Origin: a virus
Virus record (IMG/VR): IMGVR_UViG_3300025150_000003
Span: 105,414 to 169,413 of that record
Length of the DNA: 64,000 bases
Strand: one strand, 5' to 3'
Of this stretch, positions 34,120-57,624 are shown in pieces. The stretch's first letter is position 1. The number at the start of each line of letters is the position of its first letter. The translations under genes and the position numbers were made by a program. The notes beneath the pieces are model-generated. The model saw only the letters and a program-made list of their open reading frames with translations. It had not been told where the DNA came from and ran no database searches.

Positions 34120-35289
34120 TCACGGCTTGGTCGGGCGGGTGAACCGTGGGTTGCTCGACCCACCGGCCTCGGGCTGGGCGTTCAGAGCCTGCCGTGGATC
34201 CCCCTGTGGCCGATGCTCCGGGGTGCCCAGGTCTTGGACCGGCATCTGATACACCGGGACACCAGGATGACCCGGCATGTCCCCGAGGAGACGGGCCTGC
34301 TCGGCTGAGGCTTGCAGCACCCCGATCTCATCCTCAGCTTCTCGGGCCGCCAGGTGCGGAGGCCGACGGAGCTGCGGGTGGATGGTCTGCAACGCCGAGC
34401 CCTCATTCACAGGAGCCTTCCCCTGAGCGGCACGCTGCCTCATCATCGCGATGCGACGATGCTCGGCATCCAGTGCTGCATCCAACCCCTCGTCATCATC
34501 CATGTTGATGAACGAGGAGTCCGGGGCCTGGGACGGGGACACCGGTGGCGTCCGCTGTGGGGTGCGGTCCGGCGGGGGCGGGGCGGATGAAGGACTGATG
34601 GGGCCTGCCCGGCGAGCGGAGACGGGGAGCACCTGCTCAGGGTTCACCTGGTACTCGTCGTCATCCACAGGGTTGACTGGAGCCGGCGCAGGGGTGTCCG
34701 TGAGGTCCGCTGTTGCCGCGAGGGTGGCTACCTTGTCCGAGAACTTGGTCTTTTCGATGGACTCCGCACGTTCCATCTGTTCCTTCAGCTCGGTGACCCG
34801 CTTCTGAAGCCGATCGATCTCAGCGGGGATGCTGGAAGGCTCATATTTGATCTGCTTCTCTGCATCAGCCTCGGTCTTCTGAACCAGATCACTGAACCTG
34901 GTGAACACCGCTGTCAGCGACGGACGGGTCCACCGAGCCAGCAACTGTCGCATCGCCTTGTGCTTGGCGATCTTGATCGGGGTGCCGTTGCCGAGCTTCT
35001 CCCCGGTCTCGACAAAGTCCACCTCACGGAAGTCGTAATCCCCGACGGCTACAACTGCGTGAGAGAGGATCCCCATGCGGAACCGGTCGAGGTAGTCCAC
35101 CGCCGAGTGCTCACCCTCGTCAGCCTCATTGAGGGCGAGGGCCGCGTACTTCTGTGCCTCGACCTCCTCGGCAGGGAGAAGGACACGGATGGTGATGGTC
35201 GTCGGGCCGGCGTCGAACGTCAGCTCGCCCTGGCCAATCTCCGCAATCGGAGCAAGTGCCTGCTCCAGGGCCTGAAAATTGATCTGCAT
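34120..35289 (-). CDS. Tail assembly chaperone-like protein with Pro-rich disordered C-terminus (389 aa)
   Basis: First gene after the tube; TITIRVLLPAEE...ILSHAVVAVG is chaperone-like. Confidence 0.55.
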   Translation of the reverse strand: MQINFQALEQALAPIAEIGQGELTFDAGPTTITIRVLLPAEEVEAQKYAALALNEADEGEHSAVDYLDRFRMGILSHAVVAVGDYDFREVDFVETGEKLGNGTPIKIAKHKAMRQLLARWTRPSLTAVFTRFSDLVQKTEADAEKQIKYEPSSIPAEIDRLQKRVTELKEQMERAESIEKTKFSDKVATLAATADLTDTPAPAPVNPVDDDEYQVNPEQVLPVSARRAGPISPSSAPPPPDRTPQRTPPVSPSQAPDSSFINMDDDEGLDAALDAEHRRIAMMRQRAAQGKAPVNEGSALQTIHPQLRRPPHLAAREAEDEIGVLQASAEQARLLGDMPGHPGVPVYQMPVQDLGTPEHRPQGDPRQALNAQPEAGGSSNPRFTRPTKP

Positions 35290-35538
35290 CTGCTCGTTCC
35301 CCTTATGGTCAGGAAACAGCAGCGGCGGCTCTGGACAGCACGAGAAGTCATGATCTGGCCGAATCCGTCCTCAGCACATCGAACCATCTCCCTGGTGGGA
35401 GAGGAGTACAGAGCAAGCGGGGGTCATCACATTCGTCGAGTAGTCCGTCGTCGGAGCCACCGGCTGTTACCGATTGAACCATCCCCCACCCGGGGGAGGT
35501 GCCGTCTACATCCTACCCAGTCCGACTGCTACGGACGG
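35290..35538 (-). promoter_or_regulatory. Structured RNA spacer/leader, copy T of a duplicated element
   Basis: Two CC-U[stem-loop]A-UGG hairpins flank GAUGACC. A further hairpin (CUGCUGUUUCCU/GGGGAACGAGCAG) covers the chaperone RBS. Architecture matches 52307..52532. Confidence 0.6.
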
Positions 35539-36411
35539 TTAGCCCTGAATGAATGGCGACTGTGGGCTCCCGCCCGTGATGTCACCACCCGACTGGTTCA
35601 TGTTGAAGTTCGGGTTGCTCTCGCCGAACCGGATGGAACCGAGCTGCCCGATGGTCGGGTCGTTACCCGTGGCGAGGAACTCACCGTACATCGAGGCGAA
35701 GTCGTGGACGTCGGTGACGGTCACGTCGCCCGTCTCCATGATCATGCCGCTGTCCTTCGCGAACGTGGCGGACCACGACGTGAACCAGCAGGCCTCGTAG
35801 ATGGTGATGATGGCCGAGTGGCCGCGAGCCGAGCCCGGAGCCTTGCCCACGTTGCCACCGGAGCTGTTGCCCGTCGCCGGGTTGCCCGAGGGACCGAAGT
35901 CCGGCGTGACGTTGGGGTAGGTCACCTGCTTGACACCACCATCGAACGACCCGGTGCCACCCTGGTGCCCTTCGTTGGGCTTGCCCATGTCGATGTCCGC
36001 CAGGGTCGAGAACACGAGCTGCTGCTCGATGTCGAACGGCCAGCGGTGATGGGCCAGCGAACGCACGGGGCCATCGACTCCCGAGGAATAGCCCGTGGCC
36101 TGCCAGAGGTTGCACAAGTAGAGCAGGGCTCGCTCGAAAGAACCCGTGGTGGGCTCTGTCACGCTGGGCACCAGCTCGGCCACCTGGTCACCGAAACCGA
36201 TACCACGCACCGGCTCAACCGTGCGGCTCTGGCTCGGGTTGAAGCTCGACACGACGCCCATCTGGTGCATCGCCTGGTTCGACCCGTAATGCGGAGTCAG
36301 CAGGCGGACCTTCTGACTCACTGCCGTGCGGGTGTTGGGCGACGTGCCCATGTTGTAGAGGTAGGAACTACCCCCCAAACCATTCGATGGGCCGTTGTCC
36401 ATGTTCGCCAT
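35539..36411 (-). CDS. Tail tube protein (290 aa)
   Basis: GVVSSFNPSQSRTVEPVRGIGFGD...PFDIEQ...TIYEACWFTSWS is a typical myovirus tube pattern. Strongly G/C-ending codons. Confidence 0.8.
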   Translation of the reverse strand: MANMDNGPSNGLGGSSYLYNMGTSPNTRTAVSQKVRLLTPHYGSNQAMHQMGVVSSFNPSQSRTVEPVRGIGFGDQVAELVPSVTEPTTGSFERALLYLCNLWQATGYSSGVDGPVRSLAHHRWPFDIEQQLVFSTLADIDMGKPNEGHQGGTGSFDGGVKQVTYPNVTPDFGPSGNPATGNSSGGNVGKAPGSARGHSAIITIYEACWFTSWSATFAKDSGMIMETGDVTVTDVHDFASMYGEFLATGNDPTIGQLGSIRFGESNPNFNMNQSGGDITGGSPQSPFIQG

Positions 36412-36478
36412 GAGGGTTCTCCTGGGCAGTCGTAGAAGCGACGTTCACACTAGAGGAGAAGGTATAACGTAAAAAACG

Positions 36479-36507
36479 TGGACACAGGACCTGCGCTTTC
36501 GTAATGT
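36479..36507 (+). promoter_or_regulatory. Sigma70-like promoter, predicted leaderless transcript for the HNH gene
   Basis: TGGACA-17 nt-TAATGT, with ATG 36514 at the 7th nucleotide after the -10 box and no RBS. Confidence 0.6.
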
Positions 36508-36513
36508 TCCGGC

Positions 36514-37314
36514 ATGACTTTTACAAAACTGGTGGCCCTCAAAAGATGCACCCGATGCGGGGTTGAACAACCTGTCGGCGACTTCTTCTACCAGAGAAGA
36601 CAGCACCGAAACATCTGTAAAGGATGCCAAGAAAAAGAGAACCTCTCCACTGAGACTTTCAAGTGCACCCGCTGTGAACTCTCGAAACTAGCCCGAGAGT
36701 TCTATGTCTCTAGTGGGAAACGCCACTCCCAGTGTAAGAGCTGCGCCAAAACCTACCGAAAGCGATACAACAGGCGGACACCCAAAACTTCGCCTGAAAA
36801 GAAATGCTCTCGGTGTCTTCAGGTTTTGGATTCATCGGCGTTCTACTCCAAGCGGGACGCCTCGGATGGACTCCAAACTCAGTGTAAAGAGTGTATGCTC
36901 AACGCCATGAAACGCTCCCGTGAGCGACCAGCCATCAAAACTGCTTGGGGATCTGTCTCTGTTGCCCGTGCCCAGAAACTGATGATCACCCACCATCTCA
37001 GTTTCCCTGAAGTGGTAGACCTTCTGAGTGGGACCCACTGCCCCATATGTACACGCCCCTTCGGGGAAGGTTTTGGTGGTCAAGTTGACCACAACCACAT
37101 CACCGGCGAACTGCGAGGGCTTCTTTGCCTTCAATGTAACCTCCTGCTGGGAAATGCTAGAGACCAACCCGACATCCTGTTGGCCGCCCTCAACTATCTG
37201 GGGCACACCTCCGAATCCCCGCAGGTCCCTGAGACCGTCATACCAGCAACACCCCTGAAAAGGGTGTCCTCTCGACAAGAACCTTCCCGACGAAAAGTCT
37301 GGGAGGAGGTCTGA
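36514..37314 (+). CDS. Endonuclease VII-type HNH (probable homing) endonuclease with three Zn-ribbon repeats
   Basis: CPIC...VDHNHITGELRGLLCLQCNLLLG is the Endo VII signature. Three N-terminal C(T/S)RC...FY...CKxC repeats. Lower GC than flanking genes. Confidence 0.85.
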   Translation: MTFTKLVALKRCTRCGVEQPVGDFFYQRRQHRNICKGCQEKENLSTETFKCTRCELSKLAREFYVSSGKRHSQCKSCAKTYRKRYNRRTPKTSPEKKCSRCLQVLDSSAFYSKRDASDGLQTQCKECMLNAMKRSRERPAIKTAWGSVSVARAQKLMITHHLSFPEVVDLLSGTHCPICTRPFGEGFGGQVDHNHITGELRGLLCLQCNLLLGNARDQPDILLAALNYLGHTSESPQVPETVIPATPLKRVSSRQEPSRRKVWEEV

Positions 37315-37370
37315 TCAGGGGGTTCCTCTGACACCCTATCGAGTAGAAGGGGAGCCACCAGGAGAATAAC

Positions 37371-38420
37371 ATGGCTGTCAACGCACGCACGTTCCAAGTT
37401 CTGAGCATCATCCGCGAGCGAGCACTTGCGGACCTGACCACGACCCAAGAGGACATTAGCGAGTTCATCGCTAACCACCGAAAGATCAGCCCCGTGAACT
37501 ACAACAGGGCGTACATCTCCCCTTCCGCCCTGGCCAGCATCCTGGACCGGATGGCTGGACCTGACGACCTGCTTTCTCAGGGCACGAAAAATGAATTCTG
37601 GATGTCCCCCATGGGATCCCAGATGGCCGACCTCCTGGTGGACATCGACGGGTGCTCCAACCTGTTCATCGACAACTACAAGAAGATGGTGTGCTACGCC
37701 GCCCTCCAGCAGCGCAGCCGTCTCGGGCAGGGGGCTGCCACCCCCAATGACATCGCGGACGCCACGGGGCTCTCCGGGGACTCCGTGCGACGGGGACTCT
37801 CGGACCTCGTGGTGGACCACCTGGTGGAGGAGGATCGGTCAGGACGCCCCAACCTCTACACCCTCCCCTCAGGAGCAGATGACGGCTCGACCCCGGAAAA
37901 GGCCCAGGTGTCCGAAGAGGACATCGAGGACGCCGCCAGGAAGGGCTACAACCTCGGGAAGAAGGTCGATGATGACCCCACCACCAACATCATCGCGGAG
38001 ACTCTCGCGGAAATCGCTGCTGGCGAAGACGAGTGCTGGGTCCCCACCAAGGATGCCCCTCTCCTGGCTCATGATCCACTGGACCACCTGCCGAGGACTC
38101 TGAGCCAACTCCTCGAAAGCAACCCTCCGACAAACGCCTACGAGAGCTTCTGGGACCCGAAGCCCTTCGCCACGGTGGAGCAGCCCGCTGAGGAAACCGA
38201 GTTCGAGAAGCACCTTGACATTGCTGAGGAAACCGAGTTCGATACTTTCCCCACCCGTATCGGGGAAGCCTGGTTCGAGGTGCCCTTCGAGACGCGGGAA
38301 AGCCTGTACGCCCAGGCCACCGCCAGTGGCATGACTCTGCCGGATTTCCTCGACACTCTGGTGCACAGCCACGAGACGAAGATCCGTGAGGTCCTGTTCG
38401 GCGACTCGTTCTATTCCTGA
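37371..38420 (+). CDS. DNA-binding protein: winged HTH plus C-terminal ribbon-helix-helix-like segment
   Basis: wHTH: TPNDIADATGLSGDSVRRGLSDLVVDHLVEEDRSGRPNLYTL. RHH-like: FEVPFETRESLYAQATASGMTLPDFLDTLV. Acidic linker. AGGAGA RBS. Confidence 0.65.
   Translation: MAVNARTFQVLSIIRERALADLTTTQEDISEFIANHRKISPVNYNRAYISPSALASILDRMAGPDDLLSQGTKNEFWMSPMGSQMADLLVDIDGCSNLFIDNYKKMVCYAALQQRSRLGQGAATPNDIADATGLSGDSVRRGLSDLVVDHLVEEDRSGRPNLYTLPSGADDGSTPEKAQVSEEDIEDAARKGYNLGKKVDDDPTTNIIAETLAEIAAGEDECWVPTKDAPLLAHDPLDHLPRTLSQLLESNPPTNAYESFWDPKPFATVEQPAEETEFEKHLDIAEETEFDTFPTRIGEAWFEVPFETRESLYAQATASGMTLPDFLDTLVHSHETKIREVLFGDSFYS
38187..38242 (+). repeat. In-frame 20-bp direct repeat GCTGAGGAAACCGAGTTCGA (36-bp period)
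   Basis: Copies at 38187-38206 and 38223-38242 encode AEETEF twice. Confidence 0.85.
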
Positions 38421-38608
38421 GAAATGGCATCAGCCTGGGGGACCAGCTCAAGGTCCTCCGGGCTGAGCGCCCAAGCTGTACCCAGAACTGACACTTGCTC
38501 ATCAGGCAACTCTTCCTCAGATGAGTCGGCCGAGGCAAGAGTCACTTCCTCGTAGTCGTTCATGATCCAGGTTCCTTGTCCGTAGAGGGACTGGTCCATT
38601 GTGATCAT
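38411..38608 (-). CDS. Small acidic hypothetical protein (~65 aa)
   Basis: Fills the gap downstream of 38622..39371; start uncertain (38608 or 38599). Confidence 0.45.
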   Translation of the reverse strand: MITMDQSLYGQGTWIMNDYEEVTLASADSSEEELPDEQVSVLGTAWALSPEDLELVPQADAISQE

Positions 38609-38621
38609 ACCCACCAGACGT

Positions 38622-39371
38622 CTAGCGCCCGTAGGCGCCACCCGTCTGCTGTTGCGGCTTACCATCCCACTTGTGAGCCGAAGAGAAACTGTTCAGTCGC
38701 ACATAGGCTCGACCCTGGTAATCCTGAACCTTCTTCCTCAGCGGGACCCCGATGAACTTGTTGACCATCGGCATCACATATTCGGTGGGCTCCCCACGAC
38801 CGCGCACCAACTGCTTCTCGATCTCCCTGATGATGATCATCGAAGGCAAGGTTTTCACAACCTGATAGAAATCGACGTTGGTCTGGTCGTATCCCCACGA
38901 CGAGACGAAAATGTCACCCACGATGACCGCCGAGGCCATCTTCACCACCCGTGGTCCCTTGGAACCTCCGAAGTGCTGGAACTCATAGGTCTCCACGAGA
39001 CAGTCGCCATAGCGACCGAACCGGATGATCAACTTGGGTGTGTCGTAGGCCCCAACTCCCATCTGGTCGATCAGGGACGCACTCGGCATCTCCATCTCTT
39101 CCTTGCCGACGACAACACCTGGTGTGTTGGCAGGCACCCGCACCGTCCGACCCTTCACCGTGTCGAGTGGGGTGTCCATCATCAGCATGACCTTGTCACC
39201 CTTGCGGGGTGTCGTGCTGGCGAGGAACTTCGAGGCGAGATGATCGATCTTCCGAGCGATGCGATCGGGCACGAACTTGGTTGAGTTCAGCACAGCCAAC
39301 AGAGGCTTCCGCAGCTCGGGCACCTGGGCAGCCAACTTCAAAAGTTCCTGACGCAGTGGGGTCGTGCTCAT
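38622..39371 (-). CDS. Hypothetical protein with SWGYDQTNVDFYQV domain, candidate internal virion protein
   Basis: GGAGA RBS before ATG 39371. N-terminal LRQELLKLAAQVPELRKPLL helix. On the late strand. Confidence 0.65.
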   Translation of the reverse strand: MSTTPLRQELLKLAAQVPELRKPLLAVLNSTKFVPDRIARKIDHLASKFLASTTPRKGDKVMLMMDTPLDTVKGRTVRVPANTPGVVVGKEEMEMPSASLIDQMGVGAYDTPKLIIRFGRYGDCLVETYEFQHFGGSKGPRVVKMASAVIVGDIFVSSWGYDQTNVDFYQVVKTLPSMIIIREIEKQLVRGRGEPTEYVMPMVNKFIGVPLRKKVQDYQGRAYVRLNSFSSAHKWDGKPQQQTGGAYGR

Positions 39372-39433
39372 GTTGACTGTCTCCATCCGTAGCCACGGAA
39401 CTCTACCTTTCCGGGATATTGGATAGAAAACGA

Positions 39434-39465
39434 GGGCTCAACTCTGTGAGACCACCCGTAGTAGG
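39434..39465 (+). promoter_or_regulatory. GGCTCAA-N15-CGTAGTAG promoter-like motif, copy 1 (leaderless ATG 39470)
   Basis: GGGCTCAA ctctgtgagaccacc CGTAGTAGG. Confidence 0.8.
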
Positions 39466-39469
39466 TTTC

Positions 39470-39700
39470 ATGGAGAAGGATCACTACATCTCGGATCTTG
39501 CCCACATCATCACCGGGCTAGGAGCCCGTGAGGAGCGTGCGCTGGAAACCATCCGCACGATGGACCGGCAGCCCACCCTCATCGAGGATGCTACACATGT
39601 AGCCCGACTGTATGCCCTGCGCAGTGTTCGATTTGAACTCGAAGAGATGAAAGCTGCCTGGGTCAACGACCACCCGAAGTTCAAGGTTCAGAATCTATGA
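39470..39700 (+). CDS. Hypothetical protein (76 aa), leaderless
   Basis: ATG at the predicted +1 of motif copy 1; ATGA-coupled to the next gene. Confidence 0.65.
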   Translation: MEKDHYISDLAHIITGLGAREERALETIRTMDRQPTLIEDATHVARLYALRSVRFELEEMKAAWVNDHPKFKVQNL

Positions 39701-40788
39701 ATCACCTACCGGACTGCCCTTGTGGGGCAAACGACTGGCAGGGAGCCGGAGGGCACTACAGCCCCAACGGCCAATACTACGGTCGCACCTGTGGCCGATG
39801 TGGGAAGGACCTCCACAACATCGGCCGTGATGGTTGGTGGCTCTTGTTCATCCACCCCACGACCCAGCGAGAGGTGCTAGAAGACTACGCCAACACCTCC
39901 CTGGCCATCCAGGCCCGAGCCTATGCGGCCAAATGGAAGGCTGTGAACAAGGCGCATCAGAAGGTCCTGTTCGATGCCCTCTGCCGGGAATGGGGGCTGG
40001 CCCCCGAGAAGGGTGTGGAGTGGCATCCGCTGGAGACCAAGTACGACACGGGTCTCGGCTACGAGACCTGGGACTTCGACTACCTGGACAACGAGGGCAA
40101 CCGCCTCGATCTCGATGCTCATGCGTTCCGTGAGGCGTGCCACACCCTATGGGATGCCAACCCGGAGCACCCAAGCATGGTCCGGGCTCCTGACCCCATC
40201 AACGTGCCCGATGGCATCACCGCCTATGTGAGCCGTAACAAGATCTGGGATCTCGTCCCCCTACAGGCTGGCCTCCAGCCCATCCCCCTGGACCCCCTAC
40301 GCCAAGGGTGGATCACCTACTGGGGGAGGGTCTGGAGTCTCCTGAAGGAAGCCACAGGCATCACTGTGGCCCCCGAGGAAGTACCCAACGAGTACAGCAA
40401 GGATCCCACCAACGCGGAGCCTTGGTGGAAATTCACCATCGGTCGTGGTGAGTTTCTCGTTGGTCCCCGGCATCGTGTTGTCAACATCGAAGTCTCGTCC
40501 GAGACTCCGTTCCCCACGGCCACCCTCCGTGCCCTGGCGGGCGCAGACAAGGTCACCTTCACGGCTCAGCGCCCCTGGGAGCAAGAGCTGGAGGAGCGAC
40601 TCACGAAGCTCCCGCCCGCTCGTGGTGATGGGTTCAAGGCCTGGGAAGAGACGATCACTCGTCTTGCTGCCGAGGCTGCCGAGGCCAACCAGGATGCTGC
40701 CGATGAGTCCACCAAGATGGTGATCCACGCCTACAGCCAGGCTAAGGTCGTGGAGTACCTCACCCTCGCCATTCAAAGCGTGAGCTGA
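39697..40788 (+). CDS. Hypothetical protein (363 aa) with N-terminal CxC...CxxC Zn site
   Basis: Coupled ORF with phage-like codon usage. Confidence 0.7.
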   Translation: MNHLPDCPCGANDWQGAGGHYSPNGQYYGRTCGRCGKDLHNIGRDGWWLLFIHPTTQREVLEDYANTSLAIQARAYAAKWKAVNKAHQKVLFDALCREWGLAPEKGVEWHPLETKYDTGLGYETWDFDYLDNEGNRLDLDAHAFREACHTLWDANPEHPSMVRAPDPINVPDGITAYVSRNKIWDLVPLQAGLQPIPLDPLRQGWITYWGRVWSLLKEATGITVAPEEVPNEYSKDPTNAEPWWKFTIGRGEFLVGPRHRVVNIEVSSETPFPTATLRALAGADKVTFTAQRPWEQELEERLTKLPPARGDGFKAWEETITRLAAEAAEANQDAADESTKMVIHAYSQAKVVEYLTLAIQSVS

Positions 40789-41822
40789 TGCCCCCGAGGA
40801 AGACCAAGGAGCAGGCTGAGACCAAGCCCACCATCGCCTGGATGACCGGGGCATACGCAGGCTCCGGCGGGTTCCTCCAGCAATGCACGGACAAGGTTGT
40901 GACCAGGATCAACCATCACGGTGACTACCCCGATCAAGATGGCACGTTCATCGTCACAGACCGGCTCAACGTGTTCCAAGCCTATCCCATGCTCAACGTC
41001 ATCTCTGGCGAGAACATGGAGATGTGGCTCACCAAGCAGGAGGTCGAGCAGTACCGGGGCACCCGAGCAGACGACTGGACAGAACCTCACCCTCGGACTT
41101 TTGACCTGGCCACCATTGGCCTTGTCACCCCAACCAAGACAAGGCCAGCACTTCAAGGCTGGGCTGGGTCCTCCATGTATCGGATCGTTCAAGACAAAGG
41201 GGGCCACTGGTGGTACGGGGATGTCACGATACCCCACAAGTTGGCCTACTGGCACCGCTTCAAAGGCAAGAGGGGGACGGATCTTAGACTTCCCGAACTA
41301 CGTTTCCTGTACCCGCACCTGACCTACATGGGGCCGGATTCGGATCATGTCACCGTCTCCCCGTGGGGGGAGAAGAGTCGATCAGATCGACTCCTCATCG
41401 CGACGTATGAGGTACAGCGCCTTGTGGAGTCACTCAGGATGACGGGGGTCTATTACCCACAAGGGAACGCCCGTTGGAATGTGGAAATCGCCGAGAAGGA
41501 GTGCAGAACCCTCCGCGACAGTTTGATGGTCAACCTCATTGACAAAGAGGACTCAGCCTCAAAGCTCCTTGAGCACGCTCAGAAGGAAGCTGAGACTGCC
41601 CAAAACGCAGCCCATGAAGCCAAAATGAGGGCAACTCGTCTCGAAGGTGAGTTGAAAGAGCTGCGAGCGATCCCACCTACCGAACGGGATGCTATCCTCT
41701 CCCGCCTTTCCAAGGAAAGGGACGATGCCCTCGAACGTGCCTTGTGGGCAGAAAAAGCCCTAGAGACGGCTCGGGAATGCAACACGGGCTGGGATTGGAG
41801 TCGGGTGCTCGACGAGGACTAG
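40788..41822 (+). CDS. Hypothetical protein (344 aa) with C-terminal coiled coil
   Basis: TGATG-coupled; E/K/A-rich heptads near the C-terminus. Confidence 0.7.
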   Translation: MPPRKTKEQAETKPTIAWMTGAYAGSGGFLQQCTDKVVTRINHHGDYPDQDGTFIVTDRLNVFQAYPMLNVISGENMEMWLTKQEVEQYRGTRADDWTEPHPRTFDLATIGLVTPTKTRPALQGWAGSSMYRIVQDKGGHWWYGDVTIPHKLAYWHRFKGKRGTDLRLPELRFLYPHLTYMGPDSDHVTVSPWGEKSRSDRLLIATYEVQRLVESLRMTGVYYPQGNARWNVEIAEKECRTLRDSLMVNLIDKEDSASKLLEHAQKEAETAQNAAHEAKMRATRLEGELKELRAIPPTERDAILSRLSKERDDALERALWAEKALETARECNTGWDWSRVLDED

Positions 41823-42394
41823 AACTTCAAGTCTATCCCAAGCCTGTTACCATTGCGAGCATGAGGCACCGCACAGCACTTCCCGACAATCATCGGGGTG
41901 GTGATGCCAACCAGGGCCAGCCGAACGTCTGGGTCGTTGCACAGGAACCCATTCTCGCTGACCACGAGGTCCTCGTTGAGGTTGTAGGTGATGAACCCAC
42001 CCGTACCATCCCTCAACCCACCAGGGCCAATGGCCACCGTCTCGAAGATACGGAACAAGAATCGACCACCACCAGCCGTGATGGTGACGGTAGAGGCCCC
42101 TGCACGAGAGCCCTGCTCTGTTCGGAGCTGAACCCCAGTGTAGTTGTTCACCGGACCCGAGAAGGAGCCAGGGTCATAGTCTTCAGAAGGGAAGGCCAAG
42201 AACCCCGTGGCGCTGTTTCCATCGGAGGCTTCCACAACGTACTCATCCACCATGTTCGGTGGTGGGATGTACTTGACCCAGATCCCTCCCTGCCAGCCTT
42301 GGGCACGGAGATTGGGGCCGGCGGTCGCGGGGAACTTATCCCCGTTGATGACCAGAACCACGTCGTCGGTCAGGTTGGTTGTTTGCTCAGCCAC
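41819..42394 (-). CDS. Putative virion protein, possibly capsid decoration/cement (191 aa)
   Basis: Late strand, GAGGTG RBS, beta-rich Gly pattern (LVVSENGFL...IVGKCCAVP...LGIDLKF). The function is a guess. Confidence 0.5.
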   Translation of the reverse strand: MAEQTTNLTDDVVLVINGDKFPATAGPNLRAQGWQGGIWVKYIPPPNMVDEYVVEASDGNSATGFLAFPSEDYDPGSFSGPVNNYTGVQLRTEQGSRAGASTVTITAGGGRFLFRIFETVAIGPGGLRDGTGGFITYNLNEDLVVSENGFLCNDPDVRLALVGITTPMIVGKCCAVPHARNGNRLGIDLKF

Positions 42395-42442
42395 ATCTCA
42401 CCTCTACCCGAGTAGGGCCAAAGGCAGAAAACCGAACTGAGG

Positions 42443-42474
42443 GGGCTCAACTTGGCGTAGCCATCCGTAGTAGG
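42443..42474 (+). promoter_or_regulatory. GGCTCAA-N15-CGTAGTAG motif, copy 2
   Basis: GGGCTCAA cttggcgtagccatc CGTAGTAGG. Confidence 0.8.
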
Positions 42475-42498
42475 TGTGTACAAGGCACCACGGAGAAC

Positions 42499-42753
42499 AT
42501 GATGTTGAAGGACATGATCGAGTTCAAACGAGAGCAGAACGTCCGCATCGACACTGGGGACGTGGTGTTCGATGGCAAGATCCGAGCCGTCATCTCGATG
42601 AACCGGAAGAACACCAGTGACGAGGATCGCCTCTGTCACAACTACATCGTCGTGAACTACAACGACGGTGAGGTGGACACCGTTGCACGTTTCTACCAGC
42701 GCCGGTCTGGACACATCTTCAACTCACGAGGCTGGACGCTGGAAGCCGAGTAG
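42499..42753 (+). CDS. Hypothetical protein (84 aa)
   Basis: GGAGA RBS before ATG 42499, downstream of motif copy 2. Confidence 0.65.
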   Translation: MMLKDMIEFKREQNVRIDTGDVVFDGKIRAVISMNRKNTSDEDRLCHNYIVVNYNDGEVDTVARFYQRRSGHIFNSRGWTLEAE

Positions 42754-42755
42754 TA

Positions 42756-42787
42756 GGGCTCAACTCTGACCAGCCAAGCGTAGTAGG
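42756..42787 (+). promoter_or_regulatory. GGCTCAA-N15-CGTAGTAG motif, copy 3 (leaderless ATG 42791)
   Basis: GGGCTCAA ctctgaccagccaag CGTAGTAGG. Confidence 0.8.
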
Positions 42788-42790
42788 TAC

Positions 42791-43045
42791 ATGAAGATCC
42801 GACTCACATTCAAGACCCCGGACATCCTGCTCGACACCGCCGAGCAGTACCTCGACAACCCCGAATTCCAGCGCTGGCTCCTTCATGAGGAGTGGGCCAA
42901 CCCGGGAGACAAGGATCGCCAGATGCGAGACGCCGCCGAAGATGCTCTGACGGAGAAACTTCAGGGCATCGTCCGTTCAGGTGAGTACCTCACCATCGAA
43001 GTCGATCTGGACACCAAGACCGCCACCGTCGTGAAGGGAGAGTAA
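42791..43045 (+). CDS. Hypothetical phage protein (84 aa), leaderless
   Basis: MKIRLTFKTPD...GEYLTIEVDLDTKTATVV; ATG at the predicted +1. Confidence 0.7.
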   Translation: MKIRLTFKTPDILLDTAEQYLDNPEFQRWLLHEEWANPGDKDRQMRDAAEDALTEKLQGIVRSGEYLTIEVDLDTKTATVVKGE

Positions 43046-43047
43046 CC

Positions 43048-43752
43048 GTGACTGTTCTGACCGCCATCATCGCCATCATCGCCATCCTGGGGATGGTGAT
43101 GACCGTACAACTGTCCCGCAAGTACCGGGTCAATGCCGCTGCGTTCACGGCCCAGATCCAGAAGCTCGTGATGGCCAACAGCATCGACAGGGCCATCAGG
43201 CTCTGCAACGCCGTACAGGAGGCCCCCCTGCCTTCTGCGGTGAAAAGCCTCCTCGTCCGGTCCAACCGCCCCCACGAGCTTCCGCTCTACTACGAGCAGG
43301 AATACGAGGGGCTGACCCAGAAGGCATCCGAGATCAACAACTACAAGGGATGGCATGGCATGGCCGCCTTGGTGGGGAACCTACTTCTCGTGGGCATCCT
43401 CTACTTCGCGACACCTGAGGCTGACAAGGGGGGCACCACGACCTGGCTGGTGGTCTACCTCTCGGCTTCCATCCTCCTCTCAGGCCTACTGACCAGCCTC
43501 CACCACCACCTGAAGGGGTCGCGGGTGTACCTCCACAAGGTGTACATCATGCTGCTGAACCGCCAGAGCTACACCCCCAAGAGCCACGAAGTCCGCCACC
43601 TCACTCGACAGGAGATCGAGGCCTGGCAGGCCTCCATGGATGCCTTCAACGCGGACTACAGCACCCGCAAAGCGTCTGGAGCGCCCGTGGAGAAGGTGGA
43701 AGACGAGTACAAGGCCAACGCTGATGACCGTGGCGTCCTCCCGCCCCTCTGA
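43048..43752 (+). CDS. Degenerate MotA/TolQ/ExbB-family (AglR-like) membrane protein
   Basis: Three hydrophobic segments. The loop YRVNAAAFTAQIQKLVMANSIDRAIRLCNA..APLPSAVKSLL resembles myxobacterial-type TolQ/ExbB/AglR loops (recalled, not searched). Confidence 0.6.
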   Translation: MTVLTAIIAIIAILGMVMTVQLSRKYRVNAAAFTAQIQKLVMANSIDRAIRLCNAVQEAPLPSAVKSLLVRSNRPHELPLYYEQEYEGLTQKASEINNYKGWHGMAALVGNLLLVGILYFATPEADKGGTTTWLVVYLSASILLSGLLTSLHHHLKGSRVYLHKVYIMLLNRQSYTPKSHEVRHLTRQEIEAWQASMDAFNADYSTRKASGAPVEKVEDEYKANADDRGVLPPL

Positions 43753-43763
43753 ACCAGAAAGAA

Positions 43764-44141
43764 ATGCAGACAAAACTTGAAACAGTAGAACAGATGCGTA
43801 CCAGAGCACGGGCAAGCAACCAATCCTGGATGGATTTCGCCGCTTCAATCCATGATGTGGGCTATGCTCTATATCCTCTGGGCAAAGACACACTGACCTG
43901 GCTGGAACAAGCACGTCCCATCAGGGACGAAACCTGCCCACTCGAACTACGAAAGGCCGTACTACATACCGGGCGGCAAACCTCTCTCTTCGGAGAAGAC
44001 ATCTACATCGTGGATGGACGGGCCGACCACGTCATCTGGATGAGACACCAAACCTGCAACACCAGTGCCCTACTTCACCGTGGTGATGGGCTATATTGTG
44101 CCACCTGCCACGCAAGTGTTTCCCAGCAAGAGACCATATAA
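43764..44141 (+). CDS. Hypothetical protein (125 aa) with C-terminal HxxC...CxxC
   Basis: Packed ORF within the cassette. Confidence 0.6.
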   Translation: MQTKLETVEQMRTRARASNQSWMDFAASIHDVGYALYPLGKDTLTWLEQARPIRDETCPLELRKAVLHTGRQTSLFGEDIYIVDGRADHVIWMRHQTCNTSALLHRGDGLYCATCHASVSQQETI

Positions 44142-44172
44142 TCATCTGATTCTCAATCACAGGAGACCACGG

Positions 44173-44487
44173 ATGCCTGTCACACTCCATTCACCCGAGC
44201 AGAAGCCTCCGGTTTACGAGATTGAGGTCGTGGGGGCAGCGGAACTGCTTTCCAGAGCCCAGATCGAAGACCTGAGTCGGAGACTCGGAGAGTTCCTGGG
44301 GATTCCCGATGCCACCCTGCTCTCCCCACAAGCCCGAGCCTATCTTGATGCCCTTATGGATGTCGTCCACCAAGAAGCCGAAGAAGTCGCCTGGCTCGGC
44401 AAACGACGATTCGACTCTGATGCCGTCGCCTACCACGCCAGGAGACTCATCAAACACCTGGACGCTGAAACCAAGAAAAGAGAGTAG
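44173..44487 (+). CDS. Hypothetical protein (104 aa)
   Basis: AGGAGA RBS before ATG 44173. Confidence 0.6.
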   Translation: MPVTLHSPEQKPPVYEIEVVGAAELLSRAQIEDLSRRLGEFLGIPDATLLSPQARAYLDALMDVVHQEAEEVAWLGKRRFDSDAVAYHARRLIKHLDAETKKRE

Positions 44488-44657
44488 TCAATCGGTGTAC
44501 CACATCATACGTGGATTCATCAGAATCCGTTCAGTGCTACCTGCCTGTTCAGTGTTTTGTGACCCCCGCCATTTCATTGGTCAGAGGCAGGTTTTGACCC
44601 TAGTGCGGAGAGAGCCCACCATCTGGCCCGACTACTGAACAACTTTGGTAGCGCCAA

Positions 44658-44689
44658 AGGCTCAACTTCCTGAGCCCACCCGTAGTAGA
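44658..44689 (+). promoter_or_regulatory. GGCTCAA-N15-CGTAGTAG motif, copy 4
   Basis: AGGCTCAA cttcctgagcccacc CGTAGTAGA. Confidence 0.8.
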
Positions 44690-44765
44690 GTCAGGTGAGT
44701 CCTGGTGAACTGGTAGCCAGGGGCAAGGTTCCGCCAACAACGTGATGAACAAGCAGGAGAGTAAG

Positions 44766-45029
44766 ATGGACAAACTAGCCCAAATCATTGCAGAGCACCC
44801 CACCAAGCGATGGAGGGCTCATACAGGGTTCGTCACCCCGGTGATGTTGCGTGCGGTCTTTGAAGAAGCCAAGACGCGGGACATCATCACGGTGGCAGAG
44901 GTGCAGGAGATGCCCGACTTCATTGGCACCCTGTTCCTCGCACGCACCACCTGCAAATGGCTGGAGCGGATGGGATTGCTCCGTGAGAAGAGCGCTTGTA
45001 GTGGCAGGTTCAGCCTCGTGAAAGACTAG
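44766..45029 (+). CDS. Small winged-helix-like protein (87 aa)
   Basis: AGGAGA RBS; ITVAEV...ARTTCKWLERMGLLREK...GRFSL is wHTH-like. Confidence 0.5.
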   Translation: MDKLAQIIAEHPTKRWRAHTGFVTPVMLRAVFEEAKTRDIITVAEVQEMPDFIGTLFLARTTCKWLERMGLLREKSACSGRFSLVKD

Positions 45030-45045
45030 CCATCAGCACCAAAGC

Positions 45046-45086
45046 AAAGAGGCCCCCGAACGTCTGCTCGGGGGCCTCTTTCTTTT
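45046..45086. terminator. Intrinsic terminator between convergent genes, possibly bidirectional
   Basis: AAAGAGGCCCCCGA-8 nt-TCGGGGGCCTCTTT followed by CTTTT; A-rich on the 5' side. Confidence 0.85.
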
Positions 45087-45300
45087 CTAGGACTTCGGGG
45101 TCACCCGGCTGATCAAGGTCAGGCCCTCCTCTGGCAACCAGTGCAGGTGGTCCACCTGCACGTAACGGGGGTGCTGCCACAAGTAGTTCTCACACAGGTA
45201 CTCAAACCCACCATCCGTCCTGAAACGGGATTCAAGCACTCGATAGTGGAGGGTGCTCTGCCTGCTGAACAGTGTCATTACGCTGAAACTTCGGTTTCAT
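45087..45300 (-). pseudogene. Small SH3-like gene apparently split by a frameshift
   Basis: AGGA RBS and ATG 45300 give MKPKFQRNDTVQQAEHPP, stopping at 45232. The next frame continues HYRVLESRFRTDGGFEYLC...WLPEEGLTL. Confidence 0.4.
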
Positions 45301-45433
45301 CTTTCAATCCTGGTTACGGTGTCTTCACCATGAGAGTTTCCGGCTCTCGTCGGAGAGTCGTGCGAGGCCGACTCTCCTGGCTCAATAGTCCCGCAACAAG
45401 GTGTCGTTGACACCACTTTGACAAAAAACGTCA

Positions 45434-46846
45434 CTAGGCAGAAACCCGTACCAGCGTGTCCCCCAACCACAACCCACCCGGCTTGACTGCCAACACGCCC
45501 AGCTCGACCAGACAGCCCTGCAAGTAGGACACGTCCGTGTAGGGCTCGTCCTCCCGCACTTCAAGGTAGATGAGGTCCGGTGCAGACTGGATCATCTCCC
45601 GCTTGATGCGGTCCCGTTCGATGAGCTTGTCCCACTCAGCACGGTAAGACTCGTCCACCATCCAGGGGTTGGGGAAGGTGTAGTGGAACATCCCCTGAAA
45701 CTCGACGACCAACCCAACGTCAGGGAAGTAGCCGTCAAACCGGAAGCGATGCCCCGTTGGTGGGTTGGTGAACCGCCAGCTCTTCCATTCCTCCTCAAAA
45801 TGCCGCCCGTCTAAAGCCTCCGAAACGGCATCCAAGCAACGCCTCTGAGAGACGTTCCCATGTGCCCAGATCAACCCTAGACGACGACATTCCTTCTTGA
45901 TGGTGATGTTGCTGTACCCCAACCCAGACATCGCCGCCGCAATGCTCACCTTCCCATTCTTCAGCTTGAACTTTTCCAGTTCCTCCACCGTGAGGACTAC
46001 CCGTCGGTCATCGGCCGCCTGCTCGATGTACTTGGGCGTTGCTCTCAGCCCCCACAACTCCAAGTAGGTCTTGAGCGTAGGCCACGCAACACCCAAACCT
46101 GGCATTGCCCTCCGGTGATCTACCGTCCCATCAGGCTCCAAGAAAGGCGTGAAATCCTCTTGGGTCAAACCAAGGGTCTTGGCTTCTCGGATTTTCTCTC
46201 CGAAATCGGGCGGACGAATCAGCCCCTGCAAAGCACTCTTGTCCCTCACAGGACAGTCCAAGGCGACCACCAACGCCTCAGGGTGACGCTCCCGATACCC
46301 TGAGTGCTCATGCTGTAGGTGACTGGTCAGGTTCTCCGCACGGTAGCCACACTCCAGGCAACGGATGAAGTCCTTCGACTCCTTCTTGCCCTTCCACCGT
46401 GCAACCTCCAGGAGGTTCGCCGTGGAAGCCTTGCATTCCGGGCAAGGAACGACCGAGGAGAGCTTGTGCACCTCGTGCTCCCTCCCACAAGAGGGGCACA
46501 CGATGCTCTTGGTGCCATCGTAAGCATCGGAGGCCACCCGACCCTGTTGGATGGCCTCCCGTCGCTTCTCCGTGACCTTAGAGGGGCGAATGAGGGCATC
46601 CTGGTGCTTGACCCGATAGGCGTCCGCTGTGATGCCGTGGGATGCCTTCAGGTGACGAGCAAGAGTTGCCGCTCGATGCCCGCACTCAAGGCAACAGACG
46701 TAATCCTCACCCTCAACTTTCCCATTCCAACGCTGGTCCTCTTGCCACTCCAAATACTCCGGGTGGGAAGCTGCCTGGTGGCGGAAGTGAGATGCCAACC
46801 CCCGAAGGTTGGCTACCTTGATAGAACAGATGGGGCACAAAACCAC
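45434..46846 (-). CDS. Zn-finger array fused to a Vsr/DUF559-like PD-(D/E)xK endonuclease (probable homing endonuclease)
   Basis: One C2H2 finger, two Ros/MucR-like CLECG...HL...H fingers and a C4 ribbon. C-terminal RFDGYFPDVGLVVEFQGMFHY...RDRIK nuclease motif. Confidence 0.75.
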   Translation of the reverse strand: MVLCPICSIKVANLRGLASHFRHQAASHPEYLEWQEDQRWNGKVEGEDYVCCLECGHRAATLARHLKASHGITADAYRVKHQDALIRPSKVTEKRREAIQQGRVASDAYDGTKSIVCPSCGREHEVHKLSSVVPCPECKASTANLLEVARWKGKKESKDFIRCLECGYRAENLTSHLQHEHSGYRERHPEALVVALDCPVRDKSALQGLIRPPDFGEKIREAKTLGLTQEDFTPFLEPDGTVDHRRAMPGLGVAWPTLKTYLELWGLRATPKYIEQAADDRRVVLTVEELEKFKLKNGKVSIAAAMSGLGYSNITIKKECRRLGLIWAHGNVSQRRCLDAVSEALDGRHFEEEWKSWRFTNPPTGHRFRFDGYFPDVGLVVEFQGMFHYTFPNPWMVDESYRAEWDKLIERDRIKREMIQSAPDLIYLEVREDEPYTDVSYLQGCLVELGVLAVKPGGLWLGDTLVRVSA

Positions 46847-46847
46847 G

Positions 46848-46906
46848 AAAACCTCTCAGCGTGGGCCGGTGTTGAGCACCATACCCACGCTGAGAGGTTT
46901 TATCTA
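46848..46906 (-). promoter_or_regulatory. 18-bp hairpin occluding the endonuclease RBS, with overlapping sigma70-like promoter
   Basis: Perfect inverted repeat 46848-46865/46884-46901. TAGATA(46906-46901)-17 nt-TATGGT(46883-46878). RBS GAGAGG lies in the 3' arm. Confidence 0.7.
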
Positions 46907-46948
46907 GTGATGATTCCTATGTGGGTCTAAACCCTAGAAATCATTGGA

Positions 46949-52306: not shown

Positions 52307-52532
52307 CTGGGCACCTCACTGCGGGTCGTTTTGACGTTCTCTGCGCTAGGGCAGAGGGAAACCGCTCTACATGGATCCATCCCCTGCCGGAGCAGGAAGA
52401 GGCAGGTTCCCTTGTGGGGAAGCACCAGTGCAGGTCATCGGTCTGTCTATCGTGCCCATCCTAGCCCCGAAGCCAGGAGGTGGTGCCCGGGTGTTTTCAC
52501 CCTTTGCTGTTTACAGGGGCCGCATAGTCAAA
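52307..52532 (-). promoter_or_regulatory. Structured 5' leader of the sheath gene, copy S of the duplicated element
   Basis: At least five hairpins. G-U wobbles form only on the minus strand. Shares motifs with 35290..35538. GGGCACC and CACCUC are complementary to the RBS region GAGGUGCCC. Confidence 0.6.
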
Positions 52533-52970
52533 CTAACGGCCTGCCGTCTCCTTACGCTTCCACTCCCCGGCTTTCTGATGAATCTTCTGGGCTCGCTCAT
52601 GCACGGCGCGCTCCTCTGGACGAAGGACCCCATAACTGCCATCAGGTTGCCGACTAAGTTGATGGCCGTCCACCCCTGCTGAAGCCATCACCTCTTCCTT
52701 CTGGCGCTTCCGGGCCTCTGCCACATCCCAGCCCTGAGCAGAGGACTGGCCGATCACCCGGTCGATGTGGGTGTCGAGGTCGTGGATGCCAGTGTTCTGG
52801 GGCATCGGACCCGTGACGGATTTCGTGAACTGCCCTGACACCGTCGCGGGAGGGATGGGAGGAGCTTCCTCACCACAGGAAGGACAGGACTTGGCCTTCC
52901 TGCGGTCTGCGATGGGGGCTCGCTGATCGAACTGCACGCCACAGGCGCATTGATAGGTGTAGGTTGGCAA
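52533..52970 (-). CDS. FmdB-family zinc-ribbon protein
   Basis: MPTYTYQCACGVQF...CPSCG signature; TTG start. Confidence 0.75.
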   Translation of the reverse strand: MPTYTYQCACGVQFDQRAPIADRRKAKSCPSCGEEAPPIPPATVSGQFTKSVTGPMPQNTGIHDLDTHIDRVIGQSSAQGWDVAEARKRQKEEVMASAGVDGHQLSRQPDGSYGVLRPEERAVHERAQKIHQKAGEWKRKETAGR

Positions 52971-57585: not shown

Positions 57586-57624
57586 GATCTTCTCCGACTA
57601 GGGGGCTGATTTGCCAGTCGCACC

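Follow-up and report, generated by a model that had tools for sequence, protein, structure and literature searches.

Comparison with related phages indicates that two long untranslated gaps on the minus strand of this viral DNA are genuine, evolutionarily conserved folded RNA leaders, built of the same modules. The window, the whole 64,000-nucleotide stretch analyzed here, holds leader 1 in the gap at 35538–35290 and the sheath leader (leader 2) in the gap at 52532–52307; the leaders are ~210 and ~200 nt long, respectively. Leader 1 lies between the upstream gene of a 290-aa protein and the downstream gene of a 389-aa protein, the first in a ~35-kb minus-strand run of structural genes behind the 290-aa gene. 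The sheath leader is located directly 5' of the gene encoding the 1785-aa sheath. Neither gap contains an ORF conserved across the family.

An earlier sequence-only reading had proposed an undescribed structured RNA of the minus strand, present in two places and with covarying stems. This proposal was sustained by searches of Rfam 15 and by comparison with relatives, and the strings and all four hairpins on which it was built are found on the minus strand where that reading had placed them. It overlooked the promoter-like motif, the helices that close the domains over long range, and the fact that GGCACC pairs with the Shine-Dalgarno (SD) sequence of the sheath gene. Its suggestions that the RNA tunes tail-protein ratios, binds a protein, or is processed stand as hypotheses. 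Its labels “tube” and “chaperone” lack backing, since searches of Pfam, PHROGs, and the PDB identified neither the 290-aa nor the 389-aa protein. The former had no Pfam or PDB match, and a weak match to the PHROG description “virion structural protein” appeared in two of 24 relatives; the latter had no match at all in the profile searches of the three databases. An AlphaFold run on the 290-aa protein gave a poor model (pLDDT 39.5).

Parts and modules of the two leaders

Leader 1 comprises the following features, each given with the evidence behind it:

35510–35518, minus strand: GGGTAGGAT, resembling a promoter −10 motif, at the leader's 5' edge (motif count; kept in relatives)
35479–35499, minus strand: hairpin A, CC-UCCCCC-GGGU-GGGGGA-UGG (sequence inspection and hairpin search)
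35450–35472, minus strand: 5' strand of the long-range helix, including the ACAGCCG of the sequence-only reading (RNAduplex, partner-swap test, unbiased window scan)
35421–35449, minus strand: purine tract 1, of GAY repeats, including the earlier GAUGACC (GAY spacing in 63 leaders)
35408–35417, minus strand: box 1, CUUGCUCUGU; family consensus CUUGNGCUGU (conserved columns in alignments A2 and A3)
35384–35404, minus strand: hairpin B, CC-UCUCCC-ACCA-GGGAGA-U-GG (covariance model, 45.1 bits; covariation in 60 sequences)
35377–35383, minus strand: conserved 3' flank UUCGAUG; consensus YYMRAYG after an invariant GG (column counts, alignment A4)
35345–35376, minus strand: purine tract 2 (relatives' leaders)
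35335–35344, minus strand: box 2, CUCGUGCUGU (relatives' leaders and covariance model)
35312–35336, minus strand: 3' strand of the long-range helix (RNAduplex, partner-swap test, unbiased window scan)
35296–35317, minus strand: SD hairpin, GUUUCC, 10-nt loop, GGGAAC, whose 3' arm is the SD of the 389-aa gene (swap test, folding ensembles)
35287–35289, minus strand: start codon of the 389-aa gene (gene at 34120–35289; protein N-terminus kept in relatives)

The corresponding features of the sheath leader are:

52508–52537, minus strand: promoter-like region, GTTAGTTTGACTAT, 9 nt, TGTAAACA (kept in all close sheath leaders)
52489–52502, minus strand: P0 hairpin, GGGUG-AAAA-CACCC (RNAalifold; 100% paired, one compensated pair)
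52482–52488, minus strand: 5' strand of the closing helix, GGGCACC, the earlier GGCACC (pairs with 52315–52309 in the MFE fold and RNAalifold)
52456–52480, minus strand: hairpin A, CC-UCCUGGCU-UCGG-GGCUAGGA-UGG (sequence and pairing counts in relatives)
52433–52455, minus strand: purine tract, including the earlier ACAGACCG and GAUGACC (sequence and relatives)
52407–52428, minus strand: box CUGGUGCU, then hairpin P3, UUCCC-CACAA-GGGAA (RNAalifold and relatives)
52377–52402, minus strand: hairpin B, CC-UCUUCCUGC-UCCG-GCAGGGGA-UGG, irregular, with one bulge (RNAalifold and relatives)
52309–52317, minus strand: SD GAGGUG, overlapping the 3' strand of the closing helix, GGUGCCC (MFE fold, RNAalifold, relatives)

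Common to both leaders is a hairpin with a pyrimidine-rich, anti-SD-like 5' arm, a purine-rich, SD-like 3' arm, and a bulged Y, its stem followed on the 3' side by an invariant GG and then YYMRAY. Both also carry GAY repeats, recurring every 4 nt, in a putatively single-stranded tract that is followed by box CUUGNGCUG. In each leader, the domain is closed by a long-range helix ending at the ribosome binding site, and what differs is the location of the SD: a local hairpin beside the closing helix in leader 1, versus a strand of the closing helix itself in the sheath leader, 2 nt 5' of the start codon (52306–52304). A unit model trained on leader 1 matched sheath leaders outside its training set (E-values of 0.035 in L135, 0.053 in L129, 0.43 in L130, and 0.069 in L242), and profiles of the two leaders matched one another in both directions. 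Hairpin A of leader 1, which is limited to close relatives plus the L083 clade, gave a weak local match to the unit model built on hairpin B (17.8 bits, E-value 0.28).

Of the motifs listed from the window, GGCACC, ACAG(A)CCG, and GAUGACC differ in role between the leaders. Conservation of GGCACC is confined to sheath leaders, in which it is paired with the SD; ACAGCCG belongs to the long-range helix of leader 1 and ACAGACCG to the purine tract of the sheath leader; and close relatives have GACGACC in place of GAUGACC. Judged against the aligned leaders, the matches of these three strings between the two window copies are coincidental. Several structural readings were also discarded. Hammerhead, k-turn/box C-D, and T-loop interpretations of GAUGA and GGUUCGA were lost in relatives, and swap tests were null for two extra pairings, one a pseudoknot of the ACAGC loop with the boxes, the other between box 1 and purine tract 2.

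The promoter-like motif GGGTARRRT has 12 copies in the 169-kb genome, nine of which lie 22–48 nt before an ORF start, compared with ~30% for random positions. This count suggests a 5' UTR at leader 1, not only a spacer; the transcription start sites of both leaders are predicted ones. At leader 1, the motif is retained in relatives, those with short leaders included; against a promoter reading, it sits inside a long hairpin in one clade. The second genomic copy of TAGTTnGACTAT lies 11 nt ahead of a GGGTAGGAT motif. A sigma-70 consensus scan detected no sites, leader 1 included. We rejected a sigma-54 reading of GGCAC/TTGC, in which the spacing was wrong, and box CUUGNGCUG as a genome-wide promoter motif, since a loose regular expression for it showed no intergenic enrichment.

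Conservation and covariation in relatives

The window alone provides weak evidence for the element. Its two gaps had been read as similar; against shuffles, their local alignment was not significant (46 of 500 as good) and their semi-global alignment was marginal (5 of 500). Single-sequence folding gave z-scores of −1.4 to −1.5 for both gaps. A generic search for CC-stem-TGG hairpins found 54, compared with 41 expected from Markov shuffles of the genome; with no enrichment over these controls, we discarded it as evidence. Likewise, an exact-pattern scan of viral contigs for GATGACC...GATGGNTCNATGT yielded 38 matches, all of them chance occurrences in coding DNA. The weak pairwise similarity, unenriched generic hairpins, and modest z-scores would suit a chance likeness of two functionless GC-rich spacers. 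That explanation is scarcely credible, contradicted as it is by compensatory changes in deeply conserved sequence at the two loci and by confinement of the element to two sites in large genomes.

It is the comparison with relatives that, at the level of sequence, establishes the element as real. We found 62 distinct homologues of leader 1, all behind the 290-aa gene, and homologues of the sheath leader in about ten close and four distant relatives. All derive from uncultured huge phages, and the element is retained from 169-kb fragments to genomes of 618 kb, the largest among them. Both leaders occur in one genome in at least eight relatives. Genomes of 380–620 kb carry one or at most two copies of the hairpin unit, never elsewhere than at these two sites, and one 381-kb record had no match to it. 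The earlier reading is supported in that the element occurs twice per genome, one copy ahead of the sheath gene and the other after the 290-aa gene.

The covariation claimed for the stems proved real as well. Among 60 sequences, 87.8% of hairpin B cells were paired, compared with 79.6 ± 0.8 in shuffles, and 48 cells showed double changes, compared with 17.9 ± 3; none of 500 shuffles reached either value. Because the stems consist of pyrimidine and purine runs, they can shift register, and apparent pairing is inflated accordingly; in slid registers, 45–63% of hairpin B cells were paired. Aligning whole leaders with MAFFT and RNAalifold recovered hairpin B only, and it was clade-wise folding and duplex swap tests that revealed the remaining structure.

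In the window, the long-range helix of leader 1 joins 35450–35472 with 35336–35312 over 22 bp (−29.3 kcal/mol by RNAduplex). Across relatives, the duplex energy with a leader's own partner was −26.6 kcal/mol, compared with −19.7 kcal/mol with the partners of other sequences (0 of 2000 permutations), and negative controls of this swap test were null. In an unbiased scan of 640 window pairs, the helix occupied the top four ranks (z of 7.2, 5.7, 5.2, and 4.3; null s.d. 1.1). Its sequence is wholly different between clades and its complementarity is kept. Covariation support for hairpin B and this helix is strong. The arms of the SD hairpin covary too (−11.2 kcal/mol for own and −9.7 for other partners, 0 of 2000). 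In folding ensembles, the long-range helix forms in 49 of 61 leaders, with a mean of 17 expected pairs, and the SD hairpin in 46. The two co-form in 36 of the 61 ensembles, and a riboswitch-like switch between them was accordingly rejected.

In the sheath leaders, 93.2% of structure cells are paired, compared with 31–61% in slid registers. Of the seven closing-helix pairs, six are invariant, and the seventh shows a compensated change from G-C to U-A in L130; since this helix is nearly invariant, covariation speaks neither for nor against it. Pairs counted across relatives show a strand asymmetry, with 61 G-U versus 18 A-C, which fits an RNA of the minus strand and agrees with the earlier argument for RNA rather than DNA structure.

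A processing or stability element could also be built on such a helix. The long-range helix would be an RNase III-type site, cleavage at which would free a small RNA of ~110–130 nt and leave an mRNA with the SD hairpin at its new 5' end and altered stability or translation. An RNase III processing signal needs about two helical turns (~20 bp) of duplex. The leader 1 helix is long enough, both in the window and on average across the 61 leaders; a discrete domain lies within it, and it stops right at the SD hairpin; hairpin A and P0, at the predicted 5' ends, resemble 5' stabilizers. However, the sheath closing helix, at 7–11 bp, is too short, and the partial record holds no nuclease gene. We regard processing as unlikely.

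As the sequence-only reading had advised, we searched Rfam 15 with Infernal, and no family matched the 64-kb window at gathering scores. In E-value mode, the two gaps returned noise only (E-values of 3–10; ceN41, D12-methyl). By these sequence searches, the element is a structured RNA without a catalogued family and a candidate new family for RNA databases. A survey of IMG/VR for covarying intergenic motifs (PMC10690425) mined the same data type, so the element may already stand there as an unnamed candidate; its text mentions neither tail nor sheath, and Rfam 15 contains no motif from that survey for this region.

Predicted control of translation initiation and competing readings

Cis-acting control of translation initiation is the most likely reading of leader function. 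Specifically, each gap would be the structured mRNA leader of a tail-module transcription unit, with a fold that gates translation initiation at the 389-aa gene and the sheath gene, a proposal whose chances we consider about even. The internal modules may provide a docking platform, either a standby site for 30S subunits or operators arrayed for a candidate protein, and docking on them would set how often the occluded SD is used. The computed probability that the SD is unpaired is 0.34 and 0.38 for the two genes, compared with a genome median of 0.34; such accessibility is ordinary for this GC-rich genome and argues against translational gating. The sheath is needed in large amounts, a poor fit with simple repression. 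The 169-kb record, ~32% complete, yielded no candidate leader-binding protein and no genes for CsrA, RNase III, S21, or S1.

A bolder version, which we offer tentatively, is that each leader strings together decoys of a translation-initiation region, which with the closing helix would make a new class of phage riboregulator coordinating sheath and tail-operon synthesis. Every internal unit (box, anti-SD/SD hairpin, ~7 nt, and often AUG) would mimic the layout of the real ribosome binding site at the leader's end, and the arrays could supply ribosomes or hold them back, or do so with a shared phage factor, across a large huge-phage clade. The same AUGs could instead open short ORFs, translated just after the hairpins to regulate the downstream gene. 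An SD-like arm, 7 nt, and AUG follow hairpin B in 33 of 60 leaders; AUG-UGC-UGA is kept in the window clade and a 15-codon ORF in another. Yet the AUG is missing from nearly half of the leaders, and the ORFs, anywhere between 1 and 104 codons long, have no peptide in common across clades, making leader-peptide control highly improbable.

The GAY tracts invite a different interpretation, in which the RNA acts in trans as a sponge titrating a multimeric RNA-binding protein, in the style of CsrB-CsrA or TRAP-GAG, and its leader position is secondary. In 63 leaders, the commonest distance from one GAY to another is 4 nt, and ACGGA is enriched 14-fold and ACAGA 8.5-fold. Each leader has several such tracts, flanked by hairpins and without a covarying partner in the unbiased window-pair scan. 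The regular period, strong ACGGA enrichment, and multiple tracts would all suit a sponge. However, ACAGA occupies the same positions almost as often as ACGGA does, and it does not contain the GGA that CsrA requires. The leaders do not show the several GGA motifs, typically in loops, of CsrA/RsmA-type targets; their loops have neither a conserved motif nor a GGA consensus, and the partial record has no csrA gene. Moreover, no terminator ends the RNA ahead of the gene, and the element always directly precedes the same two genes. We thus find a sponge very doubtful.

Processive antitermination of the nut/put type, in which box and hairpin would modify RNA polymerase for read-through of long operons, draws on the modules' order and on the size of the downstream units. 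The box precedes the hairpin, as in lambda boxA-boxB, and the units are very long: the 5.4-kb sheath gene, and ~35 kb of genes with ORFs of up to 3714 aa. Box 1 of the window clade, UGCUCUGUA, is identical at eight of nine positions to the E. coli rrn boxA, UGCUCUUUA. Nevertheless, UGCUCUGUA is restricted to that clade, and the family box CUUGNGCUGU is without the U-rich boxA core (CGCUCUUUA-like). The hairpin loops, anything from 3 to ~14 nt long, have no sequence in common, unlike the conserved GNRA-like loop of boxB, and conservation sits instead in the stem base and 3' flank. We know of no N-like gene in these phages, and we judge antitermination quite improbable.

The element offers a concrete handle on how these phages may set or time the output of their most abundant tail protein and of the 35-kb structural operon, standing as it does exactly twice per genome, at both points where the tail module is entered. 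Should the modules turn out to be decoys of ribosome binding sites, or operators arrayed for a novel protein, the regulatory design would be new. To our knowledge, almost nothing is known of post-transcriptional control in uncultured huge phages.

Comparison with known regulatory RNAs

The leaders resemble RNase III signals (T7, the lambda N leader, rRNA precursor stems) in that a long-range duplex flanks a domain upstream of the ribosome binding site, but the sheath version is only 7–11 bp. Like lambda nut (boxA and boxB) and rrn leaders, they stand where long operons begin and have a short conserved single-stranded box ahead of a hairpin; unlike them, they have no boxA core, their loops are unconserved, and no N or Nus-dependent feature was found. 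A STAB-SD 5' stabilizer has, in the 5' UTR, an accessible SD-like sequence to which the 3' end of 16S rRNA binds, whereas the SD-like purine runs here are the 3' arms of conserved hairpins and hence paired.

The closer likenesses concern translation. Phage operators such as the MS2/PP7 coat-protein hairpins, T4 gene 32, and RegA share with the leaders a conserved bulge, stem base, and flank, together with a free upper stem and loop; they lie at or near the start site, and repeated sites could permit cooperative binding. They bear no sequence likeness to the leaders, however, and most of the phage-leader hairpins are 60–180 nt upstream of the start codon. Standby leaders, as in the de Smit and van Duin model and in E. 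coli tisB, hold the ribosome binding site in a stable helix, with upstream single-stranded tracts flanked by stem-loops and cis action on one start codon, a design that the phage leaders may share: their SD helices are conserved, and their hairpin-flanked GAY tracts are suitably placed. Compared with these, the phage leader is far larger and modular, with a closing helix of 17–30 bp and GAY tracts, and it stands at two genes.

Genomic setting and signal within the window

The window makes up the final 64 kb of a 169,413-bp record, a single virus sequence about 32% complete according to CheckV. The GC content of the window is high, at about 60%, and structural genes follow one another over a long stretch of its minus strand, among them ORFs of 3714, 1785, 1736, and 1175 aa.

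Features discussed here (window positions)
35538-35290, minus strand: gap 1 (leader 1), flanked by genes of 290 and 389 aa
52532-52307, minus strand: gap 2 (sheath leader), flanked by a 145-aa FmdB-like zinc-ribbon gene and the 1785-aa gene
8007-19151, minus strand: 3714-aa ORF, within the operon headed by leader 1
36412-46948: about 10.5 kb of mostly plus-strand genes between the sheath gene and the 290-aa gene

The C-terminal 340 residues of the 1785-aa product matched the PHROG tail sheath family (E = 1e-21). An earlier sequence-only reading had labeled the neighbors of gap 1 “tube” and “chaperone”; since Pfam, PHROGs, and PDB yielded no identity for the 290-aa and 389-aa products, we did not adopt these labels. 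For the 290-aa protein, 2 of the 24 relatives gave a weak PHROG match to “virion structural protein”, and an AlphaFold model had a mean pLDDT of 39.5. The 10.5-kb stretch also has a minus-strand gene for a ROS/MucR zinc-finger protein of 470 aa that weakly matches HNH; in relatives, the sheath gene and the 290-aa gene are also separated, by 5–8 kb.

The same reading had proposed that the two gaps share motif strings and four hairpins. Each of these was present where it had been placed, yet by themselves they are unremarkable within the window: 54 CC-stem-TGG hairpins were observed versus about 41 in Markov shuffles of the genome, that is, equally frequent, and the folding z-scores of the gaps were −1.4 to −1.5. 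The proposed similarity between the gaps did not exceed shuffles in Smith-Waterman alignment (46/500 as good) and was marginal in semi-global alignment (5/500). The reading had recognized no riboswitch or ribozyme, and Rfam 15 contained no match for the leaders. No tRNAs were found.

Structure of leader 1 across relatives

Searches with the 290-aa protein revealed very strong conservation (43–99% identity in the retrieved loci). IMG/VR and metagenomes each contributed 80 of these loci, on contigs of up to 618 kb. A homologous spacer of 190–300 nt lies 3′ of the 290-aa gene in 62 distinct loci; in more distant relatives the spacer spans only 40–125 nt. One locus (L062, 3332-3711) has 380 nt behind the 290-aa gene that fall outside the leader profile and look as if they might hold a small extra ORF.

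Order of parts in leader 1, in RNA sense, from three alignments (A2-A4)
GGGTAGGAT motif
hairpin A (optional)
long-range helix, 5′ strand (35472-35450, minus strand)
purine tract
box 1, CUUGNGCUG
hairpin B
second purine tract
box 2
long-range helix, 3′ strand (35336-35312, minus strand)
hairpin with the Shine-Dalgarno sequence (SD) as its 3′ arm
start codon

The long-range helix, overlooked by the sequence-only reading, pairs the segment containing its ACAGCCG with a segment just 5′ of the SD hairpin (22 bp, −29.3 kcal/mol). Its sequence differs wholly between clades while complementarity is kept: ACAGCCGGUGGC with GCCGCCGCUGCUGU in the window clade, GAGCAAUCGGUGG with CCACCGACAUGCUC in the L083 clade, and AACCCAGCAGCCUG with CAGGGCUGCAGGGUU in the L058 clade. 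When partners were swapped among 60 leaders, pairing with the own partner averaged −26.6 kcal/mol versus −19.7 with those of others (0/2000 permutations); four control pairs of unrelated segments were null and a fifth was marginal (75/2000). When 640 pairs of sequence segments were scanned without bias, this helix took the top four places (z = 7.2, 5.7, 5.2, and 4.3; null sd 1.1), followed by hairpin B (z = 3.8). Chance is hardly a credible explanation for the leaders; processing or stabilization via the long helix is possible but unlikely. In single-sequence ensembles, 49 of 61 leaders formed the long-range helix and 46 the SD hairpin, with 36 forming both; because the two mostly coexist, we dropped a two-state switch between them.

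The 5′ arm of hairpin B is rich in pyrimidines and its 3′ arm in purines, with a bulged pyrimidine two pairs above the base (U in 43 of 60 sequences, C in 14). After the stem come an invariant GG and the flank YYMRAYG. A covariance model of this unit (box 1, hairpin B, and flank; 47 positions, 8 pairs) aligned 60 units, in which 87.8% of cells were paired versus 79.6 ± 0.8% in shuffles, and 48 cells showed double changes versus 17.9 ± 3.0 (0/500 for both), with a shuffled baseline raised by register slippage of the pyrimidine/purine runs. Slid registers paired at 45–63%, and several stems go beyond the pyrimidine/purine pattern (ACCUG/CAGGU, GCCC/GGGC, CUUCCAA/UUGGAAG, and CUCUACU/AGUAGAG). 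Since G-U pairs outnumbered A-C pairs 61 to 18, the structure belongs to the RNA of the minus strand, as the sequence-only reading had argued.

Across 63 leaders, GAY triplets were most often spaced 4 nt apart (122 of about 330 intervals), and the purine tracts were enriched in ACGGA (14-fold) and ACAGA (8.5-fold). Neither the swap test nor the 640-pair scan revealed a covarying partner for box 1 or these tracts; the 3′ portion of box 2 extends into the long-range helix. The tracts could be putative single-stranded binding sites or, more speculatively, might pair mutually via alternating Watson-Crick and sheared G-A pairs. About half of the leaders have an AUG 3′ of the hairpins. Two clades keep short forms of the resulting ORF: AUG-UGC-UGA after hairpin B in the window clade (35377-35369) and, in another clade (L083, L090, and L223; about 3480-3530), the 15-codon ORF MKMKMGSNTHIKFAL, whose stop codon lies inside box 2. 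As the ORFs overall span 1–104 codons and encode no conserved peptide, a function as leader peptides seems very unlikely.

The motif GGGTARRRT looks like this phage's common −10-type promoter element: of 12 copies genome-wide, nine lie 22–48 nt before an ORF start that is preceded by a purine-rich site, a lenient criterion that about 30% of random positions satisfy. Two copies fall in the window (35510-35518 and 57622-57630) and ten outside it. The gap-1 copy is 220 nt from its start codon, and short-spacer relatives keep the motif, one showing a clear terminator and then TGGTATAGT. The motif positions and these relatives suggest that gap 1 has its own promoter and serves as a 5′ UTR. A sigma-70 consensus scan, which found no site, counts against this promoter, and a simple promoter role is hard to reconcile with one clade (L083, L085, L089, and L090), where the GGGTAGGGTGAG motif is the 5′ arm of a perfect, roughly 12-bp hairpin with CTCACCCTACCC in the initial 50 nt behind the 290-aa gene. 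We nonetheless consider the predicted gap-1 promoter likely; antitermination by the leader is improbable.

The sheath leader and its kinship to leader 1

Searching with the N-terminus of the sheath gave 26 loci, of which about 10 distinct ones carry a homologous leader of 200–240 nt.

Order of parts in the sheath leader
conserved GTTAGTTTGACTAT, 9 nt, TGTAAACA
hairpin P0
GGGCACC
hairpin A, then UGG
GAUGG-repeat tract
box GCU(U/G)GUGCU, running into hairpin P3
CCUGCC
hairpin B, then UGG
variable part
GAGGUGCCC, followed by the start codon

The 5′ GGGCACC(UC) is exactly complementary to (GA)GGUGCCC, so that the sheath SD forms one strand of a closing helix, 7–11 bp long depending on the phage. 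The consensus structure of 10 sequences was 93.2% paired, versus 89.8% when shuffled and 31–61% in slid registers. Because six of the seven closing pairs are invariant and the remaining one, which changes from G-C to U-A, is mismatched in three sequences, the closing helix is plausible but not proven by covariation. On the plus strand, the reverse complement of P0 followed by TTTGCTGTTT (52489-52502) scores as terminator-like, with no plus-strand gene running into it. TAGTTnGACTAT, conserved in the sheath leaders of relatives, has two genome copies (window 52524-52535; genome 27353-27364), both times with a −10-like motif 9–11 nt downstream, and could represent the 5′ half of a bipartite promoter.

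Judged from sequence comparisons, the two leaders are hardly alike within this genome but alike at the family level. A unit model trained on leader 1 only matched unseen sheath leaders (E = 0.035, 0.053, 0.43, and 0.069 in L135, L129, L130, and L242), always at the correct place and orientation. In a small search space, the leader-1 profile HMM reached sheath leaders L135 (3e-7) and L125 (3e-6), and the sheath-leader profile reached L172 (7e-8) and the window's leader 1 (7e-4). Cross-alignments superposed the hairpin, GG flank, purine tract, and box of both leaders. Three of the strings originally listed turned out to be coincidental as shared features: ACAG(A)CCG supplies a helix strand in one leader but lies within a tract in the other, close relatives have GACGACC in place of GAUGACC, and GGCACC is conserved in sheath leaders only. 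At least eight relatives have both leaders in the same genome (from shared contig names, plus G001, G002, and G004). Relatives of 380–620 kb carry at most one or two copies of the unit, without exception at these two sites, and the 381-kb genome G003 had no match to the unit model; a sponge or small RNA is quite improbable.

Proposed control of translation initiation and comparison with known RNAs

The leaders form a conserved, strand-specific fold that extends to, or takes in, the ribosome binding sites of two genes of the tail module. We infer, at about an even chance, that they control translation initiation in cis, the internal modules providing a platform on which 30S subunits (standby) or a putative protein would dock. 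The internal unit resembles in layout the real site, with its box 2, SD hairpin, and 8 nt to the AUG, and the unit model aligned weakly to the box 2/SD hairpin region (11.4 bits, E = 5.6). Simple repression is disfavored by the ordinary computed SD accessibility of the two genes and by the abundance of sheath as a protein.

No Rfam family or paper describing the leaders was found in the databases and literature searched. A 2023 survey that mined IMG/VR for covarying intergenic motifs (PMC10690425) reported more than ten thousand unnamed candidates, and its text mentions neither “tail” nor “sheath”; the leaders may already be among these candidates. We class them as a putative structured cis-regulatory mRNA leader, unusually modular in build.
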